Shown here: positions 16,494 through 64,000 of the stretch, in pieces
Position numbering within the stretch: position 1 is the stretch's first letter
Layout: each line of letters begins with the position of its first letter
NCBI GenBank assembly: GCA_963709585.1
Contig: CAVPXI010000021.1
Coordinates: 77,735 to 141,734 of the forward strand
From: Candidatus Dormiibacterota bacterium
GTDB lineage: Bacteria; Chloroflexota; Dormibacteria; Aeolococcales; Aeolococcaceae
Direction: 5' to 3'
Length of the DNA stretch: 64,000 bases
The notes under the pieces: model-generated
Told to the model about the DNA's origin: nothing
What the model saw: only the letters and a program-made list of their open reading frames with translations
Databases searched by the model: none
Position numbers and translations under genes: made by a program

Positions 16494-16514
16494 CGAACAT
16501 CTGTTTGCTATAAT
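16494..16514 (+). promoter_or_regulatory. LexA (SOS) box overlapping an extended -10 promoter
   Basis: CGAACATCTGTTTG-C-TATAAT, ATG 6 nt downstream (leaderless). Confidence 0.8.
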
Positions 16515-16520
16515 ATTCAA

Positions 16521-17486: not shown

Positions 17487-17507
17487 TCTGGCCGCGGCGC
17501 GGCGATC

Positions 17508-45094: not shown

Positions 45095-45381
45095 CCTGCA
45101 CCCTGCAGGAGGGTGAAATGTCTCTGAACCTTGGGAGCATCGCGGCGTGCGCTGGCTAGCTAGTCGCCCGCGCTGGCTGCTGCTCGGCGTGCTTGTGGTC
45201 TTGATTCTCTGTGTGGTGCTCGGTGCCGTGCTACGCAACGTGGTGCTCGGCTCGGCGATTCTGCTGGTGTTCTTTGTCTTCTTCGCGACTCTCATGGCCT
45301 TTGTGGGGCGCCGTGAGAGTCGTCGCCCTCGCAGCCCGCACTGATCCCTTCCGGCGGCCGCCCAGCGCACCTCCCGCGGAG
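45074..45381 (+). repeat. 18-bp direct repeat of the clpC 3' end flanking a small gene
   Basis: AGCGCACCTCCCACGGAG (45074-45091) and AGCGCACCTCCCGCGGAG (45364-45381). Confidence 0.6.
45147..45344 (+). CDS. Small two-TM membrane protein
   Basis: 65 aa, two hydrophobic helices, SD GGAG. Confidence 0.55.
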   Translation: MRWLASRPRWLLLGVLVVLILCVVLGAVLRNVVLGSAILLVFFVFFATLMAFVGRRESRRPRSPH

Positions 45382-45388
45382 GAGTTGC

Positions 45389-45814
45389 TCAGCGCGGCGG
45401 CAGGGTCACAGTGGCGCCGTTGGTGCCGTCGATGATGTTGACCGTCACCGTCTGGCTGACGTCGAGCGCGGCGGGGGTCGTGATGATGCTTGTGGTCGCG
45501 GTGAGGTCGGCGGTGCACGGGCCGGAGTCCGGGGCTATGACCGTGATCCGCAACTGGTTGCGCTGGGGGACGACGAGGCTTACCGGAAGTCCTGGGCACG
45601 ATCCGCTCCCCCAGGTCACCAACGCCATCCGGCCGGGCGCCCCCCAGACGGCGTCATCGCGCACAGCGCCACCTTCGCCGAGGCCGGGGACGCCGGGCGC
45701 GATGCCGCGGTAGTACCGCACCAGAAACGACGGACGGATTCCCGAGTCGCCGCAGGCGCCGACGAGCAGCATCGCCACAGCTACCGCCACGAGTGACGAG
45801 ATGCGACGTTTCAT
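45389..45814 (-). CDS. Putative lipoprotein
   Basis: MKRR...LVGAC lipobox; TWGSGSCP and CTADL motifs. Confidence 0.7.
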   Translation of the reverse strand: MKRRISSLVAVAVAMLLVGACGDSGIRPSFLVRYYRGIAPGVPGLGEGGAVRDDAVWGAPGRMALVTWGSGSCPGLPVSLVVPQRNQLRITVIAPDSGPCTADLTATTSIITTPAALDVSQTVTVNIIDGTNGATVTLPPR

Positions 45815-45855
45815 GTGTGTATTACGCCAGATGCGCCCCGGAGATCCCAGTCCTG

Positions 45856-46351
45856 TCAGACGCCGGTTGGCGGGGTCTCGCCGGGAGCGAAGCGACCCAG
45901 GTCTGCTCCAACCTTCTTGCCGATGTTGGCGATGTGGAGGTGAATCTCGTCGAGGAGATCCGTGGCCTTCTTCACCTGCGCGGTGAGGGCGGTGTTCTCG
46001 GCGAGCAGCGTCTTGATGTCATCGGTGTTGTTCTCGGTGTGCAGCGCCACCTCAGACGCAACCGCGTCAGCTCGTTTCGCGGCGATCAACAGGGCTGCCG
46101 CTTGAATGCCCGCCAGCATCGAGAGAAACAGGTTGAGCAGGATGAATGGGTACGGGTCAAATCCCGACTTTCCGCCGACGTGAAGCACGCCGTTGACGAC
46201 GGCCCAGATGATCATGACCCCGAAAAAGACGAAAACGAAGGGCCACGACCCCATCCCGTTGCGCATCTTGTCGGCGGCTCGCTCCCCGAGTGAGAGTTGG
46301 TCGGCTCGCTCGTACCGTCGGATGTTTCGCCCATTGAGGTTGCCAAGCCAT
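45856..46351 (-). CDS. DUF1003 membrane protein (frameshift near start)
   Basis: GERAAD..GMGSW, FDPYPFILLNL. Confidence 0.85.
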
Positions 46352-46451
46352 GGTCGATCTCCTTTGGAACGGATGCCACCTGCGTCACGTGCGGTTAAGG
46401 CTACGCCGCAAAGTTGACGACTCTGCAAGCGCTGCATCACTCTCAGTCGCG

Positions 46452-46928
46452 TTATCGAGATAGCTGGACCTGGGTGGGGTGGGGGGCTTCACTCAGCGAG
46501 GCGATGCAGGCAGTGAGCAGGCGCCGCATCTGATCTTGTTCGCTGACATCCAGATTGGCGAGCATGTCTTGCTCGACGCGGCGAACCGCTGCGCTGGCCA
46601 CCTTGAGCTGGCGGCGCCCGCGGGCGGTCAGCTCGGTCGGCAGGGCCCTGCCGACGGGTGCCTGTGCCGGACGAAGAACGAGGCCTTGGCGTTCGAGGGC
46701 CTGCAGCAGCGCATGCATCGACTGCCGGGTGACGAAGGCGCCGCGGGCAAGCTCGGAGTTGGACAGACCCGGTCGCTGGGCAAGCAGCTCCAGGCAGGCG
46801 TAGTGGGTGATCGTCATGCCAAGCGGCCTCAGCACGGTCTCGAGGGCAGAGTGGAGGACGCTGGCGGCCGCCTTCAGCATGTACCCCAGCGATGTGTCCA
46901 GCTCGACCCCGGGCTCGCCTTGACTCAT
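46452..46928 (-). CDS. MarR-family regulator
   Basis: SNSELAR..FVTRQSM, LERQGLV.R, LTARG. Confidence 0.9.
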   Translation of the reverse strand: MSQGEPGVELDTSLGYMLKAAASVLHSALETVLRPLGMTITHYACLELLAQRPGLSNSELARGAFVTRQSMHALLQALERQGLVLRPAQAPVGRALPTELTARGRRQLKVASAAVRRVEQDMLANLDVSEQDQMRRLLTACIASLSEAPHPTQVQLSR

Positions 46929-46973
46929 GTCAGTAGTCTGACATACACTCCTGGTGTGTCAGAAGACTGACAT
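46927..46973. promoter_or_regulatory. Two tandem palindromic MarR operators
   Basis: ATGTCAG-tagt-CTGACAT (46927-46944) and TGTCAG-aaga-CTGACA (46957-46972) between divergent marR and VOC genes. Confidence 0.8.
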
Positions 46974-46993
46974 ACTAAGAGGAGGCAGCCATC

Positions 46994-47362
46994 ATGGCCG
47001 TCACAGGACCCGACTTCATTTCACTCCAGGTGCGCGACCTGGAGCGATCCGCCGCTTTCTACGAGCAGTACCTGGGGCTGAAGCGCTCCGACGCAGGACC
47101 GCCGCACGCCGTCGTGTTCGACACCAAGCCGATCGCGTTCGCCGTCCGCGACGTCGTCGCGGGCGTCGACCTGGACGCGATCGCGCAGCCGGGCCAGGGA
47201 ATGGCGCTGTGGCTGCACGCCGCCGACGCGCAGGACATTCACGACGCCCTCGCCGCCGCCGGCACGACGATCATCTCAGCGCCCCTCGACGGGCCGTTCG
47301 GCCGCACGTTCACGTTCGCGGACCCCGACGGCTACCAGGTGACCCTCCACGACCGCGGCTGA
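46994..47362 (+). CDS. VOC/glyoxalase family protein
   Basis: LQVRDLERSAAFY, PFGRTFTFADPDGY. Confidence 0.92.
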   Translation: MAVTGPDFISLQVRDLERSAAFYEQYLGLKRSDAGPPHAVVFDTKPIAFAVRDVVAGVDLDAIAQPGQGMALWLHAADAQDIHDALAAAGTTIISAPLDGPFGRTFTFADPDGYQVTLHDRG

Positions 47363-47375
47363 GCCGCAGGTCCAG

Positions 47376-47501
47376 CTATTCGTCGTGCAGCGCTAATCCT
47401 CGGTCGACCAATGCGTTGCGGAGGATGGCAAGCGCCCGAGGTCCCATGCCGTGCAGCGCGAGCAGGTCTGGCGCGCGATGCGCGGAGTTGGGAATGGTGA
47501 C
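47376..47501 (-). pseudogene. C-terminal half of a small helix-hairpin-helix DNA-binding protein
   Basis: Translates VTIPNSAHRAPDLLALHGMGPRALAILRNALVDRGLALHDE*. Confidence 0.7.
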
Positions 47502-47512
47502 CTGTCTGTGGC

Positions 47513-48725
47513 TTAGGGCGGCGGCTCGACGACGGCAACGCCATCAGCGATGTGGATGCGCCAACCCTGCTCGTGCACCCGGCGGTGGTGCGTCCGGCAC
47601 AACGAGACCAGGTTGTGGAGCTCGGTAGGACCATCCGGCCAGTGGATGATGTGGTGGCCATCGGTCCACGCGGGCGGGCGATCGCAGCCCGGAAACCGAC
47701 ACCCCTGGTCGCGCAGGTTGAGCGCGGTGCGGAGGTGTGCCGGGATGGTGCGCGTTTCCCGTCCGACCGCGAGCGGCAGGACCGGTGGGCGGATGCCCGT
47801 CCACGCCGAACCTTCACTCGGCGGCGCGACCGCCACCACCGTCAGCGCCGCGTCACAGGCGATGCGCCGGGCGGTCTCGGGATGGATCGGTCCCACCCCG
47901 CGCAGCTCGGCCGGCCAGCCATCGGCGTCACCACGGAGGGTGTCCGCGCTCACCGTGAGGGTGAGATGCGGCCGCTGCCCGTGGACATCGCGGTGGTCCC
48001 CGCAGCGCAGCTGGGTGGCGGCGAGCTCGACGAGCGCGTCGGCCCGGCGCTGCGAGCCGGTTCGGGTCTCGTCACGGTTCAACCCGTGACTGAGCGCGTC
48101 GATCGCGGTCTTCACCAGCGCGCCACCTTCGGCATCGAGCTCACCCCGGAGGACGAACACGCCTCCGTAGGTTTGCTCGCACTCGAACCAGCGCCGCTCG
48201 TGGGCGCGGTTGTCATCGGCCAGCACCCCGTCGGGATCGATCCGGAGTCGCGCCACCTGCGTGACGGTGCGCATGTCACCGAGGTCGAGCGTCTCCGCCG
48301 CGCCCACCAGGATGTGCTCCAGTGCCGCCACCTGCTCGACGCCGACATCATTGGCGAGCTGGGCGATCATGGTCACGTTGCCCAGGGAGGCGCGACCGGC
48401 CCGGGCGCTGTCGAGACTGGAAGGTAGCTCGCCGAGCGTGCGCGCCAGCCGGACGCGATAGGCGCCCGCCTTCCATGACAAGGCGCAGTGATCGCGGACC
48501 CAGGACGCGGTGCTGCCCGCCCCGTCCGCCAGCGCTCCGTGGGCGCGATCGAAGCGGTCCAGGCGACGGAGGAACTCGGCTTCGAGGCGATCGGCAGCCC
48601 GCCGGAGGTCGACGAGATCGGCGCCCAGCGCCTGGGTCGAGAAGCCGTCGATGGACTCGCCGACGAGTGCATCCACGTGCCTCGGTCAGCCGCTGTCGGG
48701 CATCCGGTATGGCGAACGCTTCCAT
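47513..48725 (-). CDS. DUF222 + HNH endonuclease (frameshift ~48678)
   Basis: QRRADAL, ARRIACDA, LRDQGCRFPGC...HHIIHW..GPT...NLVSLCRTHH..VH. Confidence 0.88.
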
Positions 48726-48732
48726 ACACAAT

Positions 48733-48753
48733 ATTATACCAAACACCTGTTCG
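48733..48753 (-). promoter_or_regulatory. LexA box overlapping an extended -10 promoter
   Basis: Minus strand CGAACAGGTGTTTG-G-TATAAT, ATG 7 nt downstream. Confidence 0.8.
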
Positions 48754-48850
48754 CCACAGCACGGACAATGTGCTCCCGCGCAGGGTAGAGACATCTCCGG
48801 CAAATGACATGCTCACCGCGAGGTTGTCCGTCGTGAATGATGTGTCGTTG

Positions 48851-48925
48851 CACGCCGATGCTCGCCTGGGCTCGGGTTGCGGGGGAGCTCCGATGCGTGG
48901 CAACTCGTCTGCGATCCCGCGCTCC
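48851..48925 (-). pseudogene. N-terminal part of the same HhH protein
   Basis: Translates ERGIADELPRIGAP/ATRAQASIGV with a small indel. Confidence 0.6.
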
Positions 48926-48938
48926 CTAAGCGCGCCGG

Positions 48939-49903
48939 TCAGGGACCGGCGGCGTAGTCGATCGTGAACGAGCCCGAGCCGGTTGGAGGTCCGTCCCAGG
49001 CGGCGTACAGCTTGGTGCTGTAGCCGGCGAGTGCCGGGGCGCCTTCCGCGCTCGACGGAATGACCACCGCGGAGGTCCACGTCGAGCCCTTGGACGTGCG
49101 GTAGTGAAGAACGTTGGTGTTGTTCTCCCACGCGACGTAGAGGATCTTGCTCCGGACGGCGGCCGCCGGCGCACCGAGCGCACTGGAGGACACGATCGTC
49201 GATGGACTGGACCACGTCGTTCCACTGAACTTGGAGTAGGTGATGGCTCCGTTCTGATCCCAGAAGTCGTACAGATGTCCTCCGTAGGAGGCCAGGCCGG
49301 GCCCGCCTGAATACGGCCCGCTGATGAACGACGACGGGACCGTCGCCTGCCCGGACCAGGATCCACCCGTCACCGACTGGTACCAGACCGCGCCTCCGGT
49401 AGACCCGATCCACGAGAAGTACAGCGGACCGCCGAAGGACGCGATCGACGGGCTGTGGTACTGCTCGGTGATCGCGGAGGGCACCATTGTCTGCGCGGTC
49501 CAGGTGCTGCCGTTGAACTCCGCGAACCAGAGGGTGTAGGGGCTCGTCTCGCCCGTCCATGCCGCCTAGAACTCACCCTCATAGTTGGTCAACGCCGGGG
49601 CGGTGTATTGCGTCGTGAGCGCCGAAGGGATGGTCGCTGCCGCCGACCAGGTGCTGCCGCTGAAGCGGGAATACCAGATCTGATACGGGCTGGTCTGACC
49701 GACCCACGCGGCGCAGAGGTAGCCGCCAACCGAAGCGAGCGCGGGATCCGAGTAGCTCGCTGCGGACGGATCGCGTGCGCCGCGCCCCAGGACCCGTTCC
49801 CATCTCGAGCAGCCCGAACCGCGACCGGACCGAATGCGCCCGCGACAACCAGACCGGTTACAACGAGCGGTAGCCCGAGTGTCCTGACAACACGCGGCTG
49901 CAT
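48939..49903 (-). pseudogene. Secreted beta-propeller-like repeat protein, disrupted (frameshift ~49770, in-frame TAG at 49566)
   Basis: Signal peptide then ~6 repeats of P(AL)A..GG.LY.AW...Y..F.G.TWS. Confidence 0.65.
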
Positions 49904-49978
49904 GGGCGCGAGTATGGCCCCCGACAACCGCGGCGCACAAGCTACTCAGCCGGGCGGGGCCGCCGCCGTCAAGCGCCC

Positions 49979-50024
49979 AAATGGGTACCGGAAATGAGTA
50001 CCCGAATGAGCCTTTCCCCCGATG
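49979..50024 (+). promoter_or_regulatory. Triple-heptamer motif, copy A
   Basis: AAATGGGTACCGGAAATGAGTACCCGAATGAGCCTTTCCCCCGATG; -10-like TAGAGT at 50046. Confidence 0.7.
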
Positions 50025-50059
50025 GCGACATCAACGCATGCGCCATAGAGTTCGCGCTC

Positions 50060-50188
50060 ATGCAGCCACCCACACCATCCCTCCTACCCCCGCAGCGCCC
50101 CCACCAGGCGAAGCCGCCGTCGCTGGCGGCTCTCCTCGTGGGCTCCATCGTCGGGCTCGCGGCGTCCGCGTCGTGGTGGGCGCCATGA
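50060..50188 (+). CDS. Microprotein 1 (42 aa, Pro-rich plus TM)
   Basis: MQPPTPSLLPP...LLVGSIVGLAASASWWAP; ATGA overlap with next ORF. Confidence 0.45.
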   Translation: MQPPTPSLLPPQRPHQAKPPSLAALLVGSIVGLAASASWWAP

Positions 50189-50316
50189 AGGTCATCAAGG
50201 TCAAATACGGCACGTGGTCCAAGGGCAAGCTCACCGGCCAGTGGGCCGTGATACTCCTGTTCGGGGTGATCCCGGTGTGCGCTGAGGCGAGTGTCGGCAA
50301 GGTGGCCAAGCCATGA
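50185..50316 (+). CDS. Microprotein 2 (43 aa, basic plus hydrophobic)
   Basis: MKVIKVKYGTWSKGKLTGQWAVILLFGVIPVCAEASVGKVAKP; ATGA overlaps at both ends. Confidence 0.5.
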   Translation: MKVIKVKYGTWSKGKLTGQWAVILLFGVIPVCAEASVGKVAKP

Positions 50317-50447
50317 CCACGCTCCACGCGGCGACGCAGTGCGACAGCGCGGGCCAATGCACTCCACTCATCCCTGGGTGGCTCTTTGTTGTCCTATTCG
50401 CCCTGGCGCTTGTGGTGGCGTTCGGGCAGCGCCACAACGATGACTGA
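50313..50447 (+). CDS. Microprotein 3 (44 aa, C-x5-C plus TM)
   Basis: MTTLHAATQCDSAGQCTPLIPGWLFVVLFALALVVAFGQRHNDD. Confidence 0.5.
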   Translation: MTTLHAATQCDSAGQCTPLIPGWLFVVLFALALVVAFGQRHNDD

Positions 50448-50649
50448 CGCCGCTTGCGACTGCACCGAATGCACCGCGTCCCCGACGTACGCCAACTACT
50501 CAGCCGCGATGGACGCCGCCGAACGTCACCGCGTCGCCTTCGCAAACCACTCGCGGGGATGGTGGCAGCGGTTCGCGCCGGACACAGAGATGCCGCCGAT
50601 CAAGGCCGGACGCCGGAGCCGCTTCGTCGGGGACGTCTTTAGTCGCTAG
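50440..50649 (+). CDS. Microprotein 4 (69 aa, CxCxxC...H)
   Basis: MTDAACDCTECTASP...AAERHR; overlaps the previous stop. Confidence 0.45.
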   Translation: MTDAACDCTECTASPTYANYSAAMDAAERHRVAFANHSRGWWQRFAPDTEMPPIKAGRRSRFVGDVFSR

Positions 50650-50690
50650 GTTGTTTGCCTGGCGAGGGTCGAACTCCACTTCCCATCCCG

Positions 50691-51218
50691 TCATGCTACG
50701 TGACGCGGAGACTTGGCACTCCGAGGTGGCCACCCAACCCTGATGGCGATACTCAACAACGGTAATCCAGGGATTCGGAGCGCGCTGACCAAGCGTCCCG
50801 ACTGACGAAGGTAGGCGAATCGCAATGCCGGGCGCGACCGCCGAACCAGCAGGCCTCGTTTCCTGTGGTAACGCAGTCTCACGCCGAGCATCCGCAGCCT
50901 CAGGCTGTCGGGAATAGGTCCCGCTGCCTCGAGGTGACGCGCCACAATCAGCCCGTCCTGCAGCGCATGGTCACCGGCAGAAAGTGGTGTGCCAGCCAGC
51001 ACGTGGGTCGCTCGCTCGGCGAGGCTGTTCCCGAGGTGGGTTGCCAGTTCCGGCCAGGCTCTCGCAATGGTACGCACTCGTTTTGTCTGGAGCTGTTGGG
51101 ATGTTGCCCTCATCCCGCGGAGATCCGAGCCGGCGGAGTAGGGCCCGCCGGCCGAGAGCGAGCGGAGGAAATCCGCTTGCATTGAGCCTAAACGCTGGCG
51201 CGCCGTGTCCGTGGTCAA
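50691..51218 (-). CDS. Putative DUF692 partner protein
   Basis: Q..FLRSL...KR.R.IARAWPEL...LG; overlaps the DUF692 stop (TTGA). Confidence 0.7.
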   Translation of the reverse strand: MTTDTARQRLGSMQADFLRSLSAGGPYSAGSDLRGMRATSQQLQTKRVRTIARAWPELATHLGNSLAERATHVLAGTPLSAGDHALQDGLIVARHLEAAGPIPDSLRLRMLGVRLRYHRKRGLLVRRSRPALRFAYLRQSGRLVSALRIPGLPLLSIAIRVGWPPRSAKSPRHVA

Positions 51219-52048
51219 GTCGGGTTGCCGAGGCGCCGCGCGGCTCCGCGCTCGACGGCCATCCGAATGGCTTCCATCTCAGCCTCCAGCTCTGACCCTC
51301 GCGGAAAGCCGTCGTCACGTTCCAGCATCACCCCGGGCGGCACAATCCGCGAACAGAGCTCTTCAAGCAATGCCAGCGGGCCCGCTCCCACGGGGTGCGC
51401 GTGAGTGTCGTGATACAGACCTTCGCGGACGGTACCGCCGGCCACGTGAACGTAGGCCAAGCGGGCGAGCGGCAGCCGGCCCAGGGCCGCCACCGGATCC
51501 CACCCGCCGTTGCGCGCGTTCGCGTACATGTTGGAAACATCGAAGAGCAGCGCCGTATCCGTTCGCTCGAGGAGCTCGGCCAGGAACGAGGCTTCATCCA
51601 TCGCCGCTCCAGGCCACTCCACCAGCGTGGCGATGTTTTCCAACGCGAGCGGGAACGGCAGCATTCTCTTGGCCAAGGTCACGTTGTCGACGATGACCTC
51701 CAGGGCCTCGCGAGTTCGCGGGACCGGAAGCAGATGACCCGCTTCCACGCCCTCGGCGCGCACGAAGGCGAGATGCTCGCTGACCAGCGTGGCGCCTAAT
51801 CGCTGGGCCACGCGGACCAGGTGGTCGAGCCGCCGCGCATCTGGCCGCTCGGCGCCTCCAAGCGAAAGGCTGAGGCCGTGCACGATGACGGGGACCCCCC
51901 GGGTGACCAGCCGCGTGAGCGCCGGCGGGATGTCGTCAAGCCGGATGTTCTCCGCCGTTACTTCGACAAAGCCGAGCGCCTCGCGCCGCTCGATTGCGAG
52001 CGCCAGTTCAGGTCGCCAGCCGATTCCGAGACCCAGCGACGGCATCAT
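51215..52048 (-). CDS. DUF692 multinuclear non-heme iron oxidative enzyme (MNIO)
   Basis: GLGIGWR, HGLSLSLG, SEHL, LENI, FDVSN, YVHVAGG, DTHAH, MLERD. Confidence 0.92.
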   Translation of the reverse strand: MMPSLGLGIGWRPELALAIERREALGFVEVTAENIRLDDIPPALTRLVTRGVPVIVHGLSLSLGGAERPDARRLDHLVRVAQRLGATLVSEHLAFVRAEGVEAGHLLPVPRTREALEVIVDNVTLAKRMLPFPLALENIATLVEWPGAAMDEASFLAELLERTDTALLFDVSNMYANARNGGWDPVAALGRLPLARLAYVHVAGGTVREGLYHDTHAHPVGAGPLALLEELCSRIVPPGVMLERDDGFPRGSELEAEMEAIRMAVERGAARRLGNPT

Positions 52049-52801
52049 CCGCACCCGCATCCGCCACACCCGCCGCACCCACCACACCCGCCACATCCAC
52101 CGCAGGCCCCGCGGTTGTTTCTCTCACGCTTGAGTGCGCGGCCAACGTCGTTGAGCGGACCGCCTTCGAGGATCGCCGGCCCATAGATGGCCACTGCCAG
52201 CGCCAGATCCGTCGGCGTCAGCACCGCCGGTGCGTGCTCCGCACTTTCTCTGAGTGCCACGTGCTCCTCCTGCAGCTGCGTCAGAAGTGCGTTGCCACGT
52301 GCGGTGCGGCGTCGGAGTTTGATGAGGTTGTAGGTCGCGACGAGCGCGACGACCAATCCCCAAAACACTGAGTTCGACGAGATGCCACCGGTGATCGCAC
52401 TCAGTACTGCGATGCAGGCGGTTATGAGTCCGCCGCCGATCGCCAATGCGCCGGTCCAGAGATCCCGCTCGCTCAGAAGCAAGCCCGAAGCTCGGAGAGC
52501 ATCACGCACTGGGTGCGTAGCGGCCTCGGCATATTTTCGAATGTCCTCGACTGAGCTGGGGCGCTCCGACCCTGACACGCAGCGGACCACCGACTGCTGA
52601 ACTGGATCCTGCAGAACGCTCGGCGGCGGCTTCAAGGCAACCACCGTGCGGTCGCTTCGCACCATGATCAAACCCATGTGCGCCAGTCCCGCAAGGGAGG
52701 AGCCAACCGCCCTGGGGACTCCCTCGGCAAGGTAGGCGGCCTCAAGTGGACTCAGCTCTACCGCAGAGAGCAAATCAGCAGCTCGAACTCTCGATCGCCA
52801 T
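52045..52801 (-). CDS. TIGR04222-type membrane protein with C-terminal (CGG)n tail (frameshift near start)
   Basis: LSPLEAAYLAEG, two TM, RRTARG, ALAVAIYG, ends GACGGCGGCGGCGGCGGCGCG; SD AGGAGG before ATG 52801. Confidence 0.85.
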
Positions 52802-52861
52802 GGGTTGCCTCCTGTTGTCCTTCAGATGGCGCAAGCATCCGACGGGAGACACGGCGGAGAA

Positions 52862-52905
52862 ATCCGGGAAAAGGCTCAGGCGATGCTCATATAGGTGCTC
52901 AATTT
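52862..52905 (-). promoter_or_regulatory. Triple-heptamer motif, copy B
   Basis: Minus strand AAATTGAGCACCTATATGAGCATCGCCTGAGCCTTTTCCCGGAT. Confidence 0.65.
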
Positions 52906-53034
52906 GTCGTCGCAGCCCGGTGGGTCACCGCTCCGACCCTCCATCACCGGCGCGACTGGGTGAGCCCTGAGCCACCCCCACCCGCTTGATTGTCACGACG
53001 ACATCGTGCAAGTGGAAACGTGGACTCGCTCCGG

Positions 53035-53080
53035 AAATGAGCACCGATAAATGAGTACCGGATAGGCAGTTTCGCCGATG
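53035..53080 (+). promoter_or_regulatory. Triple-heptamer motif, copy C
   Basis: AAATGAGCACCGATAAATGAGTACCGGATAGGCAGTTTCGCCGATG. Confidence 0.65.
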
Positions 53081-53114
53081 CCTGGCCGCCATCAGAGCCG
53101 CTTGAACTCACGCC

Positions 53115-53235
53115 ATGAACTTCCCGAGTTCGGCGGCACTGGGTGTGGGTGCTCGGCGTGGCGTTGATGGTGCTCGAGACACTTGCGTTGTGGTTCGTCT
53201 GGACTCACGCTTCCCCTCCCTTCGGCGGCCACTGA
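53115..53235 (+). CDS. Small single-TM peptide (needs a 1-nt shift after ATG, or GTG start at 53143)
   Basis: RRHWVWVLGVALMVLETLALWFVWTHASPPFGGH*. Confidence 0.4.
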
Positions 53236-53239
53236 CGAA

Positions 53240-54271
53240 CTACGTACCCGTGATCTGCGCGATCCTCGCGGATTCTGCCGTTGCTATCGCCTCCGCCACG
53301 CTCGCGGACGCCGCCGAGACGCCGCACAGGATGCCGCCTTGAAGGAACGCGACCTGCGTCCCCACACCCGTGACACACTCGAACTCGTCGGCCTTGTCGG
53401 CCGTCCCAACGGTTGGATGAGTCGACGTGCTCTGTCCCCCTGGCGGGCAGGAGGCACTCACAAATGCCGGGTAATCAGTGGCGGCAGCTGCACCGCCGCT
53501 GTCGACCACCACCGCGATAACGAGACTCACCGTGCCGTCATTTGCGATATAGGTGCGCATATCGGTACCCGCGAGACCGCCCATCTCCGCGTCGGTGAAA
53601 CTGCTGACCGGGACCGCGCCGTGGACAGCACTCGAAGCGTCGGTGGCGTTCAGCAGCAGCGGGGTGACGGACGAATCCACGCCCGGTGCCGGGGGCACGG
53701 GAGACGGCGCCGCGCCGCCGGTCACGTACTGGACGGTGATCTCCGTGGTCGCGCCTGCGGCCACGAAGGTCACCTCGAACTGTGCAGATGACCCTTTCCT
53801 GCTGAACTGCCAGGTGTCGCCGCTCGCCGCCTGAGCAGGGTCGGACGCCTGCACCGTCCATCCGTTGGTGGCCAGCGCACTCTGGTAGAACGTCTCGACG
53901 TCGATCAGCGAACGAGGGTCGTCGATGACGAGTGTTTCTGCGCTCTGCCCCCCTCCACTGAGCTCAAAGTTGTCGCTCACCGATGCCGCGCCGGCTTCCG
54001 CTGGGAAGTGCCGCAGCGGACTGCTGCTGAAGCTGGTGGCAACGACAACCACGACCACGAGGACGATGATCAACGCGATCACGCCGCACCCTCCACAGCC
54101 GAAGAGCCACCAACGACGACGGCTCCGCCGCGCCGGTGGGGTCGCCGGGAACGGAGGCGGTGAAGGAGCCCAGGGGCCGGGCGATGCCGACCATTCTCCG
54201 GCTCCGCCGGCGGACGCTCCAGGAACCGCTGTTGACCGGCCCACTTGAATGGGCCATATCGGGTGGTCCAC
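53240..54271 (-). CDS. Membrane-anchored protein (Pro-rich N-terminus, GCGGCG-TM, extracellular domains)
   Basis: SD GGAGG before GTG; RRWWLFGCGGCG..TM. Confidence 0.75.
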   Translation of the reverse strand: MDHPIWPIQVGRSTAVPGASAGGAGEWSASPGPWAPSPPPFPATPPARRSRRRWWLFGCGGCGVIALIIVLVVVVVVATSFSSSPLRHFPAEAGAASVSDNFELSGGGQSAETLVIDDPRSLIDVETFYQSALATNGWTVQASDPAQAASGDTWQFSRKGSSAQFEVTFVAAGATTEITVQYVTGGAAPSPVPPAPGVDSSVTPLLLNATDASSAVHGAVPVSSFTDAEMGGLAGTDMRTYIANDGTVSLVIAVVVDSGGAAAATDYPAFVSASCPPGGQSTSTHPTVGTADKADEFECVTGVGTQVAFLQGGILCGVSAASASVAEAIATAESARIAQITGT

Positions 54272-54340
54272 GTTACGCCTCCCCGCGTGTGTGACATCAA
54301 CTGCTTCGATTCAGAAGCTAGACGCGCGGGTTGATGCCGC

Positions 54341-54386
54341 CATCCGACGAAAGGCTCATGTGAGTACTCATTTTTGGTACTCATTT
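54341..54386 (-). promoter_or_regulatory. Triple-heptamer motif, copy D
   Basis: Minus strand AAATGAGTACCAAAAATGAGTACTCACATGAGCCTTTCGTCGGATG. Confidence 0.7.
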
Positions 54387-54417
54387 CGGTGATTGACCGG
54401 CTGTAGACTGCGAGCTT

Positions 54418-56088
54418 GTGAAGGGCTGGGCATCGACCCGAGGGCAGCTCGCCGGGACGCTCGCATTTGCTGTCGTTGTCACCGGCGGCCTCGCCGCCGC
54501 GACCAGGTTCGCCGGCACGGCCGGTCCGTGCGAGCAAGTCCTGATCGCCTCATCCCAGGAGAAGGCGAGCATGTTGCAGGGCTTCGCCGTCTCTTATGAC
54601 GCTGGGCGGCCGCGCGTCGACGGACAGTGCGTGAGCGTGAGCGTCGAGAAGGTCGACTCAGGTGACGCCGAGCTCGCCCTGGCGAACGGTTGGGCCGGGT
54701 CGACGCGACCGGAGGTCTGGTCACCCGCCAGCTCGGCCTGGGTCAACCTGCTCAAGGCGCAAGCGCCCGCGGTGGCTGCACGACTGCTGCCGGTGAGCAT
54801 CGTCAGCCTCTTCCAGTCACCGCTTGTGATCGGGATGCCTGAGCCGATGGCAATGGCACTGCACTACACCACAACGCCGATCGGGTGGGCGCAGATTCTC
54901 CAGCTGGCACAGAACCCGCGTGGCTGGGCGGTCTACGGTAAGCCAGAGTGGGGCAAGTTCAAGCTGGGCAAGACCAACCCGACGATCTCCACGTCCGGAC
55001 TGCATGCCCTGATCGGTGCTTATTACGCTGCCCCCGGTGACGGTGCCCTCAGCGTCGACACGGTCTCGTCGGCTCCGGTCAAGGCTTTCATCCGCGCGAT
55101 CGAGGAAAGCGTCGTTCACTACGGTGAGACAGCTACCGATTTTCTGCAGCACCTTCGCTACACCGACCTTCAAGGACCGGACGCCCCGCTGGGCTACATC
55201 TCAGCCATCGCGGTTGAGGAGCAGGAGCTGGCGGATTACAACGCCGGTCTCGTGGGCGGCATTCAGTACTCCCCCCCGCGGGTCAAGCTGGTCGCCATCT
55301 ATCCGTCGGAGGGAACTCCTGTTGCCGACCATCCCTATGTCGTCCTGGGCTGGTCAAGCGACGGACAGAAGGCGGCAGCGCTCGATTTCGAGAACTTCAT
55401 TGAACGACAGGTGACCAGCATCGAGGCGCGTCACTTCAGGTTCGGTAACGTTGCCACCCCGGCGCTCGCCTCGTTGGTGTACCCGGATGGACACCTCCCA
55501 GCTCTCGTTCGGTTGGAGTCGCCTGCCGGCCCTGTTCTACAGGCCATGCTCCGGGGCTGGAAACAGGTGCGTAAGGCTGCGCGAGTGCTGTTCCTGATCG
55601 ATACTGCAGTCGCCCCCGGCGCACTCAGCGATGCGACCCGGGACCTGGCCGGAGCCGCCTCGGCTTTCTCATCTCAGGACAAGGTTGGCGTCTGGACCTT
55701 CCCTTCCCCCGGAGAGGGGACGGCATCGCACACCGTTTTGCGCGACGTCACCGAGTACTCGGGATCGCTGGGTGTCACCCTGGCCCGCATTAGACCCGTG
55801 ACGGGTCATTCCGAGCTTGAAGGCGCGCTCTACGATGCGGTGACGGAGATGGTCGCGAATTACGACCCGACTGCGATCAATGCCGTGGTCGTGCTCGAGC
55901 TCTCCCCCGGGAATCAGGCGGCAAGTGCGGACACGGGATTTTTGACCAGTAAAGCGCCGTTTGTGCGGGTGTTCACGGTCGGCCCGGCCAGCGACCTGCT
56001 CAGGGCGATCGCGACCCTCGCCGGCGGGACGTTCTACGAACCGGGGGCGGCGAGCCATTTCCTCAACGACGCGATCTCCAACTTCTGA
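54418..56088 (+). CDS. Exported solute-binding domain plus degenerate vWA domain protein
   Basis: SSQEKA, VWSPASSAW, QSPLVIGMP, KTNPTISTSGL, YPSEGT..ADHP; C-terminal vWA-like VLFLID...LYDAV..NAVVVL..VRVFTVG. Confidence 0.8.
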   Translation: MKGWASTRGQLAGTLAFAVVVTGGLAAATRFAGTAGPCEQVLIASSQEKASMLQGFAVSYDAGRPRVDGQCVSVSVEKVDSGDAELALANGWAGSTRPEVWSPASSAWVNLLKAQAPAVAARLLPVSIVSLFQSPLVIGMPEPMAMALHYTTTPIGWAQILQLAQNPRGWAVYGKPEWGKFKLGKTNPTISTSGLHALIGAYYAAPGDGALSVDTVSSAPVKAFIRAIEESVVHYGETATDFLQHLRYTDLQGPDAPLGYISAIAVEEQELADYNAGLVGGIQYSPPRVKLVAIYPSEGTPVADHPYVVLGWSSDGQKAAALDFENFIERQVTSIEARHFRFGNVATPALASLVYPDGHLPALVRLESPAGPVLQAMLRGWKQVRKAARVLFLIDTAVAPGALSDATRDLAGAASAFSSQDKVGVWTFPSPGEGTASHTVLRDVTEYSGSLGVTLARIRPVTGHSELEGALYDAVTEMVANYDPTAINAVVVLELSPGNQAASADTGFLTSKAPFVRVFTVGPASDLLRAIATLAGGTFYEPGAASHFLNDAISNF

Positions 56089-56519
56089 TGTCGCCACCGC
56101 CGGCGCTTCGCCACATCGCCGTTGCCGCAATCGCAGCGGCCACGGTGTTGGCAAACCTCGCGCTCGGCGTGGCCTGGTTGGTTGCGTTGCTGGCGGGCGC
56201 GTTGGTCATGCTGTTTGGTGAGCTGTCGCCGCGACTGTGGCGTGCGCGCCCGCCGGCAGCCATCCACGCCCCCACATCGGTTGCGGAACTCGGACGTCCT
56301 GGGGCCTACCCGTTGACCCGGAAGGAGGTCGAGGTAGCCATCCTGGTCGCGCAGGGCAAGACCAACAAGGAGATCGCAAGCCGGCTGTTCAATTCGGAAC
56401 GCACTATCGATAACCACGTTCAGCACATCTACAACAAGCTGACCATCGATTCTCGTGCTGAACTGGCGCTCTGGGTGCAGGAGCGTGGATTGCTGACTCC
56501 TGTGATCGGAGCGAAGTAG
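56088..56519 (+). CDS. Membrane-anchored LuxR-family HTH regulator
   Basis: N-terminal hydrophobic helices; LTRKEVEVA.LVAQG.TNKEIASRLF.SERTIDNHV.HIY.KL. Confidence 0.9.
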   Translation: MSPPPALRHIAVAAIAAATVLANLALGVAWLVALLAGALVMLFGELSPRLWRARPPAAIHAPTSVAELGRPGAYPLTRKEVEVAILVAQGKTNKEIASRLFNSERTIDNHVQHIYNKLTIDSRAELALWVQERGLLTPVIGAK

Positions 56520-56526
56520 GCGAGGC

Positions 56527-56547
56527 CGAACATACGTTTGCTATGCT
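56527..56547 (+). promoter_or_regulatory. LexA box overlapping the extended -10 of uvrA
   Basis: CGAACATACGTTTG-C-TATGCT. Confidence 0.8.
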
Positions 56548-56634
56548 CTGACGCCATGGTCCGCGTCCGGCATCCTCACCCGCCCCCATGGCGCAGGTTG
56601 GTCATCGACACCACTTGGGTACGCTAGACGGTCA

Positions 56635-59554
<2,920 letters not shown>

Positions 59555-59598
59555 TGCGCACCCGCAACTCACTGTGGGTGCGCTAACGTGGTGCCACG

Positions 59599-59892
59599 AT
59601 GACCTCCATGGACGGCGAGGACAGACGCCTTCGGCTCCGGCGTCTCGACGACTGCCTCGACGTGCTCGAGCAGGCGCATGAGCTCAACCTGACCGAGGTC
59701 AGCGAGCGCATGGCCGAGGCGTTGAGCGAACGGGTTCCGACCGTCCATACCGGGATGCTCATCGCCGACGCAATCGAAGAGGTGTTGCGTCAGCAGGAGC
59801 CGTACATGGTGCAGATCCGCCCCGAGGTTTCACGCAGGGTTCGCCGCCGCCGCGACCCATTCGACGTGAGGCTGCTGCTCCAACGCCGCTGA
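59599..59892 (+). CDS. Small hypothetical helical protein (similar to 13971..14495)
   Basis: RLRRLDDCLDVLEQAH...IADAIEEVLRQQE. Confidence 0.65.
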   Translation: MTSMDGEDRRLRLRRLDDCLDVLEQAHELNLTEVSERMAEALSERVPTVHTGMLIADAIEEVLRQQEPYMVQIRPEVSRRVRRRRDPFDVRLLLQRR

Positions 59893-59938
59893 CCCTGAAG
59901 CTTTCGGCGGACCGTCCGCAGGTACACTCGGTGACCAC

Positions 59939-62900
59939 ATGAGTGCCTTCGGCTTCGATCCAGAGCAGATTTTTGCTCGACGGCGCTCCCGTCCACGGAT
60001 CGTTCGTCCGCCAGGTCAGCTCCGGCGCCGGATCATCATCGGCGGCGTCATCGCGGTCATCATCGTGCTGCTCATCGTCGCCCGATGGCTGCTGGGACTG
60101 CGCGCTGAGTACCTCTATTACGCGAGCGTCCACCACACCAACGTCTTCTGGACGCCGCTGATCGCGCACATCATCCTCTTCTTTGTCGGGTTCGCGATCA
60201 TCGCCGTGATCTTCGGCGCGGCCGTCGTCGGCTGTTCGATGGCGGCGGCGAATCTCGACCGGCGCGGGCGCCGCATCGTGTTGTGGTCCGGCGCGGTGAT
60301 CGCCGTCATCGCCGGCATCGCGGGCGGATCGACGCTCTCCGGCGAGTGGCAGGACATCCTGCTCTGGCTCCACTCGGTGCCGTTCGGGGCCACCGACCCG
60401 GTCTTCCACGCCGACTACTCCTTCTTCGTCTTCACCCTCCCGGCGATCGACGACCTCATGGGGCTGCTCTGGGGCGGCGTGATCCTCGGGATGCTCGCCG
60501 CGATCGCGGTCGCGGTCGTCTCGATCACGGTGATGAACGCCCCGGAGGAGCTGCCCCTGCCGCTCGAGCCGCCGGCCGGTCGCTCGCCCGAGGACGCGCT
60601 CCGCGCCGCCATCATCACCGGCGGCATCGGGCTCGCCGCCATCTTCGTCCTTGCCGCCTTCGGCGCCCACTTCGGCGTCTACCACCTGGCCACGAGCACC
60701 CATGCCACCGGCAATGGGAGCAGCGGAACGCCCTACGTGGGGCTCGATGCGACCCAGCGCGCGGTGATCCAGCCGGTCCTCGGGTTCCTCCAGGTCCTCG
60801 CTGCCGTCCTGGCGGTGGTGACGCTGGTGCTCGTGGCGATCCGCTGGCGGCGGGCGTCGACGGGGACCGCGATCGCGTTCGGCGCGATGCTCGGCGGCTG
60901 GCTGCTCGTCGCCGGGCTGACCCAGGGCATTCCCGCGGCCGTGTACCAGGGAGCCAGCGTCGGGCCCAACGAGCAGACCGCGCAAACGCCGACGATCGGC
61001 GACTACCTCACGACCAGCCGGTACGCCTGGGCGATCCAGAGCACGGGTACGACTCCGCAGGTGCAGAGCGGGAGCTTCGGGACGCCGCACGCCCCGACGC
61101 TCAGCGATCTCGAATCCGACCTCGGCACGCTCCAGAACGTCCGCATCCAGGACCCGACGCAGCTGCCCGACACGCTGGCGCAGATCGACCGGAGCCGCAG
61201 CTACCAGACGTACTCGACGATCTCGGTGGATCGCTATCCCAACCCGAACACCGGGGGCGACACCGAGGTGATGCTCGGACCGCGCGAGATCGCCGAGGCG
61301 GACGTCCCCAACGCGTCCTTCGTCAACACCTCGCTGACCTACACGCACGGCTACGGCGTGACCGCGGTCTCGGTGAACGCGGTCGCCGGTGAGGGCAAAC
61401 CGCAGGTCCTCGTCGGGCAGCAGCCGATGACCCAGGTCACCCCGGGCTCGCCACCCGACCTCTCGTTCGGCAACAACCCGGCCCCTGATCCGGCCATCTA
61501 TTGCGGCCTGGACACGACCCAGAGCGTCATCTCCGGCACCACCCAGCCGGAGTTCAACTATCCGTCGGGGAGCGGTGACAACCAGGTCCATGGCACCACC
61601 GCCGAGGACGGGATCCCGATCACCAACCCGATCGACAAGCTCGCGCTGTCGCTCGAGGATTTCGGCGGATTCAACCTCTTCCTCAACAACTCGCTGACCC
61701 CCAGCAGCCGCGCGCTCGTCAACCGCCAGATCTCGACCCGCATCACCTCGCTGGCGCCGTTCCTCACCGTTGACGGGGATCCGTACATCGTGGTCGACCC
61801 GCAGACCGGTCACCTGATGTGGATCGCCGACGCGTACGTCAAGACCTCGCTCTTCCCCGAGGCGTACCAGCAGACCGACGGCACCTCGTACATGCGCAAC
61901 GCCGTCAAGGCGGTGATCGACGCCAAGACCTGCCAGATCACGCTGTATGCGGTAAACCTGAACGAGCCGATCACGGCGGCGTGGAACGCGATCTACCCCG
62001 GGTTGCTCACCCCGCTCAGCGACATCTCGACGTACCTGCGCTCGCATCTTCGTTACCCGGAAGACCTGTTCAACGACCAGGCGCAGGCATACGCGCAGGT
62101 GCACATCACCAGCCCGACGGTCTTCTACAACGGCAGCGACCTGTTCAACATCGCGCAGCAGACCCTCAACGGGACCAACCAGGCCACCACCGCGTACTAC
62201 GTCGAGGCAACGCTGCCGGACACGAGCAGCCCACAGTTCGTGCTGCTGCAGACATTTTCTCCGGGAGCCAGCGGGGGAGGCGCCACCGCGAACAACATGA
62301 CGGCCTGGCTCGCGGCCGAGTGCGACTACACGAGCACCAATGACCCGCAACTCGTCTCGGTGCGTCTCAACAACGCTGACAACGTGCTCGGGCCGCTGCA
62401 GTTCGACAACAACATCAACACCAACCAGGTGATCAGCTCGGAGATCAGCCTGCTCGATCAGCACGGGTCGACGGTCACCCTCGGCAACGTGATCATCCTG
62501 CCGTTCAACAACAACTCGTTCCTCTACGTGCGGCCGATGTACGTCACCGCCGGCGCCAACGGCGGTACCGCGTTCCCGCAGCTGCAGTACGTGATCGTCG
62601 GCGACCAGAGCAACGTGCAGCAGGGCACGTCGTTCGCCGCCGCAGTTGCGAATCTGCTCAACAACGGCAACCCGGTCCAAGGCCTGCCGCTCCCGACGGG
62701 AACGGGCACCACGTCACCGTCGCCATCACCGTCGACATCGCCGTCACCGTCGCCGAGCCCCGGGACATCGCCGACGCCGACGAGCATCCCGACCGGCACG
62801 ATCCAGCAGCAGATCCTCGCGCTCGACAGCAAGCTCATCACCGACAACGCGGCGGCCCAGACAGCGCTCATGGCCGGCAACTACACCGCCTACGGCGCCG

Positions 62901-62980
62901 ATGAGGCCAAGGTGCAGGCAGACCTCAAGGCATTGCAGGCCTTGCTCGCCCAGCAGGCGGCGGCGAGCCCGAAGCCATAG
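59939..62980 (+). CDS. UPF0182 family membrane protein
   Basis: FGATDPVF..DYSFFVF.LP, YTHGYG, APFL.VDGDPY, SYMRNAVKAVID, HLRYPEDLF. Confidence 0.93.
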   Translation: MSAFGFDPEQIFARRRSRPRIVRPPGQLRRRIIIGGVIAVIIVLLIVARWLLGLRAEYLYYASVHHTNVFWTPLIAHIILFFVGFAIIAVIFGAAVVGCSMAAANLDRRGRRIVLWSGAVIAVIAGIAGGSTLSGEWQDILLWLHSVPFGATDPVFHADYSFFVFTLPAIDDLMGLLWGGVILGMLAAIAVAVVSITVMNAPEELPLPLEPPAGRSPEDALRAAIITGGIGLAAIFVLAAFGAHFGVYHLATSTHATGNGSSGTPYVGLDATQRAVIQPVLGFLQVLAAVLAVVTLVLVAIRWRRASTGTAIAFGAMLGGWLLVAGLTQGIPAAVYQGASVGPNEQTAQTPTIGDYLTTSRYAWAIQSTGTTPQVQSGSFGTPHAPTLSDLESDLGTLQNVRIQDPTQLPDTLAQIDRSRSYQTYSTISVDRYPNPNTGGDTEVMLGPREIAEADVPNASFVNTSLTYTHGYGVTAVSVNAVAGEGKPQVLVGQQPMTQVTPGSPPDLSFGNNPAPDPAIYCGLDTTQSVISGTTQPEFNYPSGSGDNQVHGTTAEDGIPITNPIDKLALSLEDFGGFNLFLNNSLTPSSRALVNRQISTRITSLAPFLTVDGDPYIVVDPQTGHLMWIADAYVKTSLFPEAYQQTDGTSYMRNAVKAVIDAKTCQITLYAVNLNEPITAAWNAIYPGLLTPLSDISTYLRSHLRYPEDLFNDQAQAYAQVHITSPTVFYNGSDLFNIAQQTLNGTNQATTAYYVEATLPDTSSPQFVLLQTFSPGASGGGATANNMTAWLAAECDYTSTNDPQLVSVRLNNADNVLGPLQFDNNINTNQVISSEISLLDQHGSTVTLGNVIILPFNNNSFLYVRPMYVTAGANGGTAFPQLQYVIVGDQSNVQQGTSFAAAVANLLNNGNPVQGLPLPTGTGTTSPSPSPSTSPSPSPSPGTSPTPTSIPTGTIQQQILALDSKLITDNAAAQTALMAGNYTAYGADEAKVQADLKALQALLAQQAAASPKP

Positions 62981-62999
62981 CCGGGGGTCCGCGCGAACC

Positions 63000-64000
63000 A
63001 TGAGCGACGCGGTTGACATCGCACCCGGAATCCGTCAGCTCGACACGCTGCTGGGCGGCATGGATCAGCTCACCGCCGGCTTCCTCATCGACGGGCCGAT
63101 GCCCGCATTGGTCGAGACCGGATCGCAGTCGAGCGTCCCCGCCGTGCACACCGCGCTCGACGCCCTCGGACTCGGCCCGACCGACCTGCGCTGGATCATC
63201 GTCACCCACATCCACCTCGATCACGCCGGCGCCGTCGGGGACCTCGCCGCCGACTTCCCCAACGCCACCGTGATCGTGCACGAGCGCGGCGCGCGCCACC
63301 TCGTCGACCCGAGCCGGCTCATCGACAGCGCCTCGCGCGTCTACGGCCCGCTGCTCGACAGCCTCTACGGGCGCATGACCGCGGTCCCGGAGGACCGCCT
63401 CATCGCCGCGGGTGACGGGTACCGGGTCGACGTGGGCAACGGCCGCGAACTCGTGCTCGTCGATTCCCCAGGGCACGCCAAGCACCACCACGCGGTCCTG
63501 GACGAGCACACCGGGACGCTTTTGGTCGGCGACGCCGTCGGCGTGCTCCTGCCCGACCTCGGCGTCCTCCGCCCGGCGACCCCACCACCCGACTTCGACC
63601 TCGAGCAGGCGGTGCACAGCCTGCGGCGTTTCGCCGAGCTGCGCCCCGAGCGCATGGTGCTCACCCACTACGGCCCGGTCGCCGACGCGCAGGCCACCCT
63701 CGCCGAGGCCGAGGACATGCTCCACGGCTGGGTCGAGGTCGCCGAGCGCGTCATCGAGGAGTTGGCGGACGCGGGCATCGACGACGTCGCAGCGGCGCTC
63801 GCGGAGGCATTCGCGCTCGACCCGGAGACGCTGCCCGAGGCCATCCGCGAGAAGGCCGAGGTGCTCAACGGCGTGCACAGCAACGCGGCCGGCATCGTTC
63901 GCTACCTGAGTCAGCGGCAGCCGCGCCGGTCGAATGACCACGGCCGCCCGGCGGCGCGACCGGCTCATCGCCGCGGTGGTCCTGAGCGCGGTGATCGGCC
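63000..64000 (+). CDS. Metallo-beta-lactamase fold hydrolase (frame open to window end; true stop probably ~63937)
   Basis: ATG 63000; THIHLDHAG, PGHAKHH, GDA, THYG. Confidence 0.88.
   Translation, partial: MSDAVDIAPGIRQLDTLLGGMDQLTAGFLIDGPMPALVETGSQSSVPAVHTALDALGLGPTDLRWIIVTHIHLDHAGAVGDLAADFPNATVIVHERGARHLVDPSRLIDSASRVYGPLLDSLYGRMTAVPEDRLIAAGDGYRVDVGNGRELVLVDSPGHAKHHHAVLDEHTGTLLVGDAVGVLLPDLGVLRPATPPPDFDLEQAVHSLRRFAELRPERMVLTHYGPVADAQATLAEAEDMLHGWVEVAERVIEELADAGIDDVAAALAEAFALDPETLPEAIREKAEVLNGVHSNAAGIVRYLSQRQPRRSNDHGRPAARPAHRRGGPERGDR

Follow-up and report, generated by a model that had tools for sequence, protein, structure and literature searches.

The interrupted HhH gene

The locus described here lies in a window of 64,000 nucleotides, the whole stretch analyzed of contig CAVPXI010000021.1 from the Candidatus Dormiibacterota bacterium assembly GCA_963709585.1. 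Within it, a small gene for a helix-hairpin-helix (HhH) protein is split by a cassette that carries a single DUF222-HNH gene behind an SOS-box promoter. All positions are those of the whole 64-kb window, and the HhH pieces and the insert are read on the minus strand. The source genome is denoted G000 (contigs C5, C6, C14, C15, C21 and others), with the remaining G numbers standing for genomes of the genus and other relatives. The features of the locus are as follows.

48845..48933, minus strand: N-terminal fragment of the small (HhH)2 gene, from translations, tblastn with the homologue P0003 and the G063 orthologue
48804..48844, minus strand: about 40 nt of filler between the HhH fragment and the cassette core, and site of a 47-nt deletion relative to G063, from alignment with G063:C317
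48740..48753, minus strand: motif CGAACAGGTGTTTG resembling an SOS (LexA) box, CGAAC-N4-GTTTG, directly upstream of the -10 hexamer and invariant in 25 of 25 aligned copies
48723..48738, minus strand: TATAAT -10 hexamer (48738-48733) and, 7 nt on, the conserved start ATG (48725-48723), from the alignment of copies
47512..48803, minus strand: core of the REP13E12-like cassette, common to four other copies of the genome at 80-82% identity
47513..48676, minus strand: longest open frame, DUF222-HNH, 387 aa from an internal GTG, matching Pfam DUF222 and HNH
47487..47512, minus strand: 26 nt of filler from the stop codon to the resumed HhH reading, matching neither side
47376..47486, minus strand: C-terminal HhH fragment including the stop codon, 86-88% identical to P0002 and P0003

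The N-terminal piece reads ALRERGIADELPRIGAP from 48933 to 48883 and ATRAQASIGVQR from 48880 to 48845, the frame being changed at two extra C within a run of five (48885-48881). In the G063 orthologue, which does not have the two extra C, the frame reads through. Between the stop codon of the upstream gene and the conserved motif, no in-frame ATG or GTG was found for this fragment. The C-terminal piece, from 47486 to 47376, reads SAHRAPDLLALHGMGPRALAILRNALVDRGLALHDE and then ends at a stop codon. A search with this piece found two intact metagenome proteins, P0003 (69 aa) and P0002 (70 aa), that span both pieces with their order kept and read ...DELPRIGA(P/S)ATRALASIGV(K/H)RLSQV(AD/SE)HRAPDLLALHGMGPRAL... 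In the tblastn comparison of P0003 with the 64-kb window, three collinear matches were obtained for residues 2-17, 16-29 and 36-69 (E = 5e-4, 5e-4 and 7e-16, respectively), with no further match of E < 0.02 anywhere in the window. Judged from these alignments, the HhH gene is truly split and a chance resemblance can be dismissed. The initial annotation had assigned the two fragments to a single gene, interrupted by an insert whose sole gene, DUF222-HNH, follows an SOS-box promoter, and both statements are borne out.

The small HhH family includes 18 more metagenome loci at 42-63% identity, all with an identical 12-residue spacing between the two hairpin motifs. Members of the family reach 23 bits against HHH_5 (cut-off 27) and 20 bits against RNA_pol_A_CTD (cut-off 23.8) in Pfam, and P0002 and P0003 match Cdd1 alone, at 14-15.5 bits (cut-off 25.5). 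Since these scores are under the cut-offs, "HhH" is a reasonable rather than a curated label. No paralogue was found elsewhere in the source genome; among 60 relatives only two weak matches to the gene were obtained, neither of which a contig scan of the genomes confirmed.

Content of the cassette

The open reading frame (ORF) of the window copy matches Pfam DUF222 with E = 1.7e-28 and 100.3 bits (cut-off 24.4) and Pfam HNH with E = 1.6e-4 and 22.2 bits (cut-off 21.4). The HNH and zinc-binding residues C341, C346, H356, H357, N370, C375, H378, H379 and H383 vary little or not at all across 75 diverse homologues, and the window ORF contains their equivalents. For the intact copy on C5, an AF2 model (pLDDT 93.9, pTM 0.80) displays a long helical N-terminal part followed by a C-terminal HNH domain. 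With VIA-align, this model was matched to the HNH domains of McrA, IscB, Cap5 and Cas9 at Z 5-7.3, and its residues 47-177 were matched weakly to ParB/KorB/Spo0J DNA-binding domains at Z 5-6.4, a value within the range of common helical arrangements. The DUF222 part is helical and probably DNA-binding. Foldseek returned nothing for the C5 model at E <= 0.001, no NCBIfam model for the protein was found, and the sole hit of a sequence search of the PDB was the IscB HNH domain, at E 0.23. The Foldseek and VIA-align searches showed no transposase or recombinase fold, although a missing match proves nothing.

Regarding expression, the start codon is ATG in 23 and GTG in 2 of the 25 aligned copies, and its spacing from the -10 hexamer suggests a leaderless mRNA. 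A matching box with a TAnnnT layout is found in this genome ahead of several genes, among them a RecA-like one, and lexA itself is preceded by a GAAC-N4-GTTTG site. These motifs suggest that the cassette is a candidate for SOS (LexA) control. In Mycobacterium tuberculosis, according to a published study (PMC3381160), LexA binds the 13E12 genes and the genes are under SOS control, and the SOS wiring of the family is thus not new. Elsewhere in the window a second DUF222 relic is located on the plus strand (16494-17511). It has an SOS box and a TATAAT of its own (GCGAACATCTGTTTGCTATAAT, near 16494) as well as an ATG that looks leaderless; its frame is broken after about 150 codons and it has no HNH part.

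Junctions, decay and age of the window copy

The insert between the two HhH pieces measures 1358 nt (48844-47487), about 1.36 kb. On homology, its junctions are located at 48845/48844 (5') and 47487/47486 (3'), which replace the positions 48851 and 47501 proposed initially. Because the true 3' junction is at 47487/47486 rather than 47501, the distance from the end of the DUF222-HNH ORF to the junction is corrected from 11 bp to 26 nt. The seamless "...SIG-VT..." join that had been read across the insert is also lost: the homologues carry LSQV(A/S)(D/E) between "...GV(K/H)R" and "HRAP", whereas the window has VTIPN, which matches none of them, ahead of "SAHRAP". The filler at the two junctions, about 40 nt at the 5' and 26 nt at the 3' side, had no match in the HhH family, in other cassette copies or in the compared genome regions.

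A target duplication, which the initial annotation had proposed to look for, was not seen at the window copy, where the two junctions aligned locally with a best score of 14, a value reached by 757 of 2000 shuffles. No terminal inverted repeats were found at the ends of the window insert and no direct repeat flanks it, and its sole ORF is DUF222-HNH, in agreement with the earlier remark that transposase and terminal repeats are lacking. An insertion sequence (DDE, IS21 and the like) was considered and rejected, there being no transposase, terminal inverted repeats or target duplication. As for the subterminal hairpin attributed to the insert together with a promoter and a single ORF, the latter two are present, and the inverted repeat kept by other copies is mostly deleted here. 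The 5' HhH/cassette junction is reproduced in contigs of public runs. Over 46400-50400, no joint skipping the cassette was found in the contigs of four such runs, which are short and uninformative on excision.

Comparison with the orthologous copy of G063 shows that the window copy has lost 47 nt, which took the 5' end of the unit and half of the inverted repeat. Compared with all sister copies it also has one extra base after codon 16 (near 48677-48679), which shifts the conserved ATG out of the reading frame. In three of the four public runs, contigs omit one base at 48677-48679 (one of these contigs has 4 mismatches in 491 nt), and the frameshift of the window copy may therefore be polymorphic or an assembly error. 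The stop codon is TAA in the window copy and TGA in 23 of 24 other aligned copies, with AGA at that codon in L071.

The age of the insertion is indicated by G063, whose contig C317 matches window 49942-48713 at 89%, crossing the HhH/cassette junction up to the end of that contig. Because the same 5' junction is present there at this identity, the insertion is older than the split of the two species-level genomes. It was thus not "caught" in the act, as first described, and the copy has decayed since. The syntenic locus of G064 (window 45136-46417, 91-94%) carries an uninterrupted but decayed HhH pseudogene, without the cassette and without the MarR-glyoxalase duplicate described below. Beside this pseudogene, a repeat of about 50 nt (L051 1764-1866) matches five places in G000:C14, one of which sits 126 nt past the C14 cassette.

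Cassette copies in the genus

The cassette is a discrete multicopy unit of about 1.3 kb that occurs at many unrelated sites. The source genome contains nine DUF222 matches, five of which are copies at the DNA level, namely the window copy and four others at 80-82% identity to it. Matches in the cassette range are found in at least 35 of the 42 genus genomes and number as many as 13 in a single genome. The core common to the copies extends from GGTTAYTGCC... to the stop codon, and the full frame is kept in about 13 of 25 copies by our own parsing. Near the 5' end, an inverted repeat, GTTATTGCC/GGCTATAAC, has 77.6% of its cells paired, compared with 26-52% in slid controls. No covariation beyond that of shuffles was detected in it, and it may be a conserved palindrome rather than a proven structure.

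The element had been described as delimited, and the ends of its copies were compared in this respect. Pairwise homology extends 4-39 nt (up to 168) beyond the core on the 5' side and from -1 to +32 nt on the 3' side, limits which are ragged and unlike exact transposon ends. In 23 of 25 copies no direct repeat of at least 12 nt was found within 440 nt, and the flanking repeats that stand out among the 25 are those of the C6 copy (16 nt) and of L070 (11 nt), the 95th percentile of mismatched pairs being 11. Empty sites were also sought for three young G064 copies: for L055, flank homology with G063 ends 227 nt short of the cassette; for L054, none was found in five genomes; for L056, the G063 site is occupied too. 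In G003, G023, G027, G031 and G006, many cassettes carry an interruption of about 80-160 nt at a single position (query 2067-2086, near window 47915-47934), and one run contig omits 26 nt at 47915-47942. Such interruptions are a lead to a possible attachment site of a serine-integrase prophage, of the phiRv1 type, within the repeat.

Clean empty sites are found at a tRNA-Arg gene. The C6 copy (L005 1124-2744; G000:C6:115368-116988) is a 1598-bp insert that holds the DUF222-HNH cassette only, with no integrase found inside it. It starts 4 nt past tRNA-Arg(CCT), and 16 nt of the tRNA-Arg end, CCGGGGCTACCAACGT, are repeated on its two sides. Both flanks are adjacent in 10 genomes, and all seven loci inspected run from the tRNA directly into the right flank. 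At the same tRNA-Arg, G008 has a cassette with tRNA fragments on both sides. Altogether, 6 of the 25 copies are situated 3' of a tRNA gene (Arg, Met, Leu or Val) that has their orientation, at a distance of 150-730 nt, and one further copy follows a tRNA-Met fragment. At the tRNA-Val(GAC) loci (e.g., L103-L114), 40 of 42 genomes lose homology to one another at the tRNA end or within about 50 nt of it. At least 10 genomes carry this end again as a 45-nt copy, 6-13 kb from the first where both are on one contig, as in the attachment sites of islands, and at least 16 genomes have a cassette no more than about 3 kb beyond the tRNA or the distal repeat. A hairpin, GGCCACC(C/T)GTCTCA(C/G)GTCA..GGTGGCC, is also observed 22-23 nt after two different tRNAs and ahead of the cassette, Arg in G000 and Val in G008, G036 and G026 (instances L005 1146-1172, L069 634-660 and L078 1428-1454); it may be an arm of an integrating element. 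The tRNAs nearest to the window copy are 29.1 kb away. This copy was considered as a tRNA-targeted integrative element and rejected, having neither a nearby tRNA nor a flanking repeat. As 23 of 25 copies are without a flanking repeat, the tRNA-end repeats record particular events and not a general rule. Of the mobile, SOS-wired cassette first envisaged, the discrete multicopy unit and its clean empty sites at tRNA-Arg stand, and the words "caught" and "delimited" do not.

Concerted evolution of the copies

In a maximum-likelihood tree of 29 copies, the copies are grouped by genome. The three copies of G012, two of G008, four of G064, two of G010 and six of seven of G032 form groups at 100/100, and four of G000 at 98/96. 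This grouping prevails despite copies that occupy shared sites in different genomes, at tRNA-Arg and tRNA-Val. When the tRNA-Arg copies of G000 and G008 were forced together, the change was -347 log-likelihood units (p-value of the AU topology test, p-AU, 4e-12), and for the six tRNA-Val copies it was -1180 units (p-AU 1.5e-6), these site-based groups having been chosen post hoc, after the tree was seen. The tRNA-linked sites look orthologous because G000 and G008 have collinear flanks around their tRNA-Arg copies and, at the tRNA-Val site, the downstream gene is common to G000 and G012. The simplest reading of the grouping, taken from the tree and the flanks, is gene conversion, which a preprint describes between REP13E12 loci (PMC13061034). 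Since copies at orthologous sites group by genome, high identity within a genome is no evidence of recent transposition. The window copy groups with copies of G064 and G010, and its grouping with the other four G000 copies is disfavoured (p-AU 0.001), a placement which fits the mosaic last 20 kb of the contig.

The mosaic contig end and neighbouring genes

The last 20 kb of the contig, at window positions of about 45800-64000 (C21:122000-141734), are 43-100% covered by 80-93% identical copies within the bin (C14, C15), compared with 0-2% for four control contigs, and parts are 91-98% identical to G064, G015 and G063. This could reflect horizontal transfer, duplication of the region or a chimera at the end of the contig. 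Next to the HhH gene, the MarR and glyoxalase genes (window 46482-47393) are a 92.7% duplicate of G000:C15:29148-30059, the C15 copy being the one conserved in the genus, and contigs of runs X2 and X3 join 46457 to 47455. Upstream of the HhH fragment lies a 182-aa ORF (48939-49487, minus strand) rich in internal W/Y/S repeats, which had no Pfam match and is found within the genus in G063 and G017 only.

Origin and spread of the cassette

Taken together, the results favor an old, decaying cassette of the REP13E12 type inserted in a small (HhH)2 DNA-binding gene of an uncultured soil bacterium, the cassette being a selfish nuclease gene that is maintained by conversion and spreads rarely, and not a cut-and-paste transposon with defined ends. 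We place the probability of this reading at about 70%. The cassette consists of one probably leaderless gene for a DUF222 and HNH nuclease behind an SOS-box promoter, and its insertion would have killed the HhH gene. The selfish nuclease would be expressed upon LexA cleavage, and the copies would persist and be homogenised through break-induced gene conversion. New sites would be reached rarely, by way of host break repair or by riding on other elements, and such entry would leave ragged junctions containing filler.

Several observations weigh against this explanation. Four to six codons of the HhH target are missing, and the junction filler has no match in the compared sequences. Repeated re-insertion at the same tRNA-linked sites may not be fully separable from gene conversion. 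The 16-nt repeat of the C6 copy and the tRNA fragments of the G008 copy look like site-specific integration and misfit a pure break-repair model. Furthermore, the last 20 kb are mosaic and closer to the genomes of other species, and an assembly or binning artefact may affect the surroundings of the locus.

A more specific proposal, tentative and in our judgment unlikely, is that DUF222-HNH cassettes form a separate class of nuclease-driven selfish elements. The SOS-induced nuclease would cut sister copies as well as structured or conserved targets, such as tRNA 3' ends, and host repair would then copy the cassette into the break. The outcome would be either conversion of sister copies, amounting to a drive within the genome, or rare insertions with variable junctions (duplications of 16-60 nt, small deletions, filler). 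The HhH and tRNA-Arg insertions would then be two outcomes of one mechanism.

Somewhat less probable still is that site-specific integrases or other mobile elements move the cassettes in trans as passengers, with the HhH insertion as a by-product. The tRNA-linked copies supply the argument: the C6 insert has its 16-nt tRNA-Arg-end repeat and an empty site in all seven relatives inspected, the G008 copy at the same tRNA-Arg is bounded by tRNA fragments, 6 of 25 copies follow a tRNA gene on its 3' side with the same orientation, at least 10 genomes carry 45-nt repeats at the tRNA-Val end, which is a hot spot of recombination, and the same hairpin occurs within 23 nt of two different tRNAs ahead of the cassette. 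However, the C6 insert has no integrase, and the window copy is 29.1 kb from a tRNA and has no repeat. At tRNA-Val, moreover, the cassette is located beyond the distal repeat of the island, and it is therefore a resident of the site rather than island cargo.

An autonomous transposon, with the DUF222-HNH protein as its transposase and the window copy as one of its insertions, we regard as more doubtful again. It would suit a discrete 1.3-kb unit that occupies many unrelated sites and contains only this gene, as well as the inverted repeat conserved at the 5' end and the G064 copies, which are 97-99% identical and whose homology stops no more than 8 nt from the same 5' point and at the stop codon. 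Nevertheless, terminal inverted repeats at both ends and a target duplication at the window copy are absent, 23 of 25 copies are without a flanking repeat, the ends vary between copy pairs, and the fold comprises an HNH nuclease and a helical domain only. The identity within genomes is explained by conversion, given that copies at orthologous sites group by genome. The earlier suggestion that the DUF222-HNH protein moves the element is not supported by this analysis.

Rearrangement or mis-assembly in place of an insertion is highly improbable. The mosaic region might point to it, as might the 92.7% MarR-glyoxalase duplicate of C15 (46482-47393), the 82-87% identity of window 50717-56522 to C14 (where a cassette lies 190 nt downstream of the block in the same direction) and the inversions mediated by 13E12 repeats in M. 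tuberculosis (PMC13157036). The HhH pieces, however, directly flank a single cassette with their order and orientation preserved, and the 5' junction is found again in G063 and in contigs from independent runs. Recombination between two cassettes, moreover, would not leave both halves of the gene around one copy.

Comparison with known systems

The closest known system is REP13E12, the 13E12 family of M. tuberculosis with DUF222 and mostly with HNH. Both are dispersed multicopy units of about 1.3-1.4 kb with one DUF222(-HNH) gene, and both have an SOS-box promoter, LexA binding having been shown for M. tuberculosis in the published study (PMC3381160) and the motif alone being observed here. 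Gene conversion between copies, as described in the preprint (PMC13061034), is a further likeness. In contrast to REP13E12, the present host is probably a member of the Dormibacterota and not of the Actinomycetota, and several of the present copies are linked to tRNA genes; the likeness is drawn from domains and layout. The host assignment follows from the neighbouring ClpC gene, for which the best-matching relatives, at 86-99% identity, come from MAGs labelled Dormibacterota. DUF222-HNH genes are very common in general, with 20,503 cluster representatives at E <= 0.001.

Free-standing HNH homing endonuclease genes of phages, such as I-HmuI, MobE and the like, are also comparable. Their likeness, seen in the HNH fold matches as well, includes a lone nuclease gene with its own promoter, presence or absence between otherwise collinear genomes, and a spread that is expected to proceed through break repair and not transposition. 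Unlike the DUF222 cassettes, which occupy many unrelated sites per genome, the phage genes have one cognate site each, and their enzymes are not known to contain the large DUF222 domain. Islands of the tyrosine-integrase type that target tRNA genes resemble the C6 and G008 copies, which are bounded by repeats of the tRNA-Arg 3' end and have clean empty sites; they differ in that the 1.6-kb insert has no integrase and such repeats are absent from the window copy and from most of the others.

Against this background, the cassette is a member of an already known family, and the insertion is real but old and does not reveal how the family moves. What the locus adds is a clear gene-disrupting insertion outside the Actinomycetota, together with evidence for an SOS-box wiring retained in a further phylum and for copies that evolve in concert. 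The most useful new leads are this concerted evolution and the tRNA-linked sites, occupied and empty across the genus, which could be used to seek the target of the nuclease.

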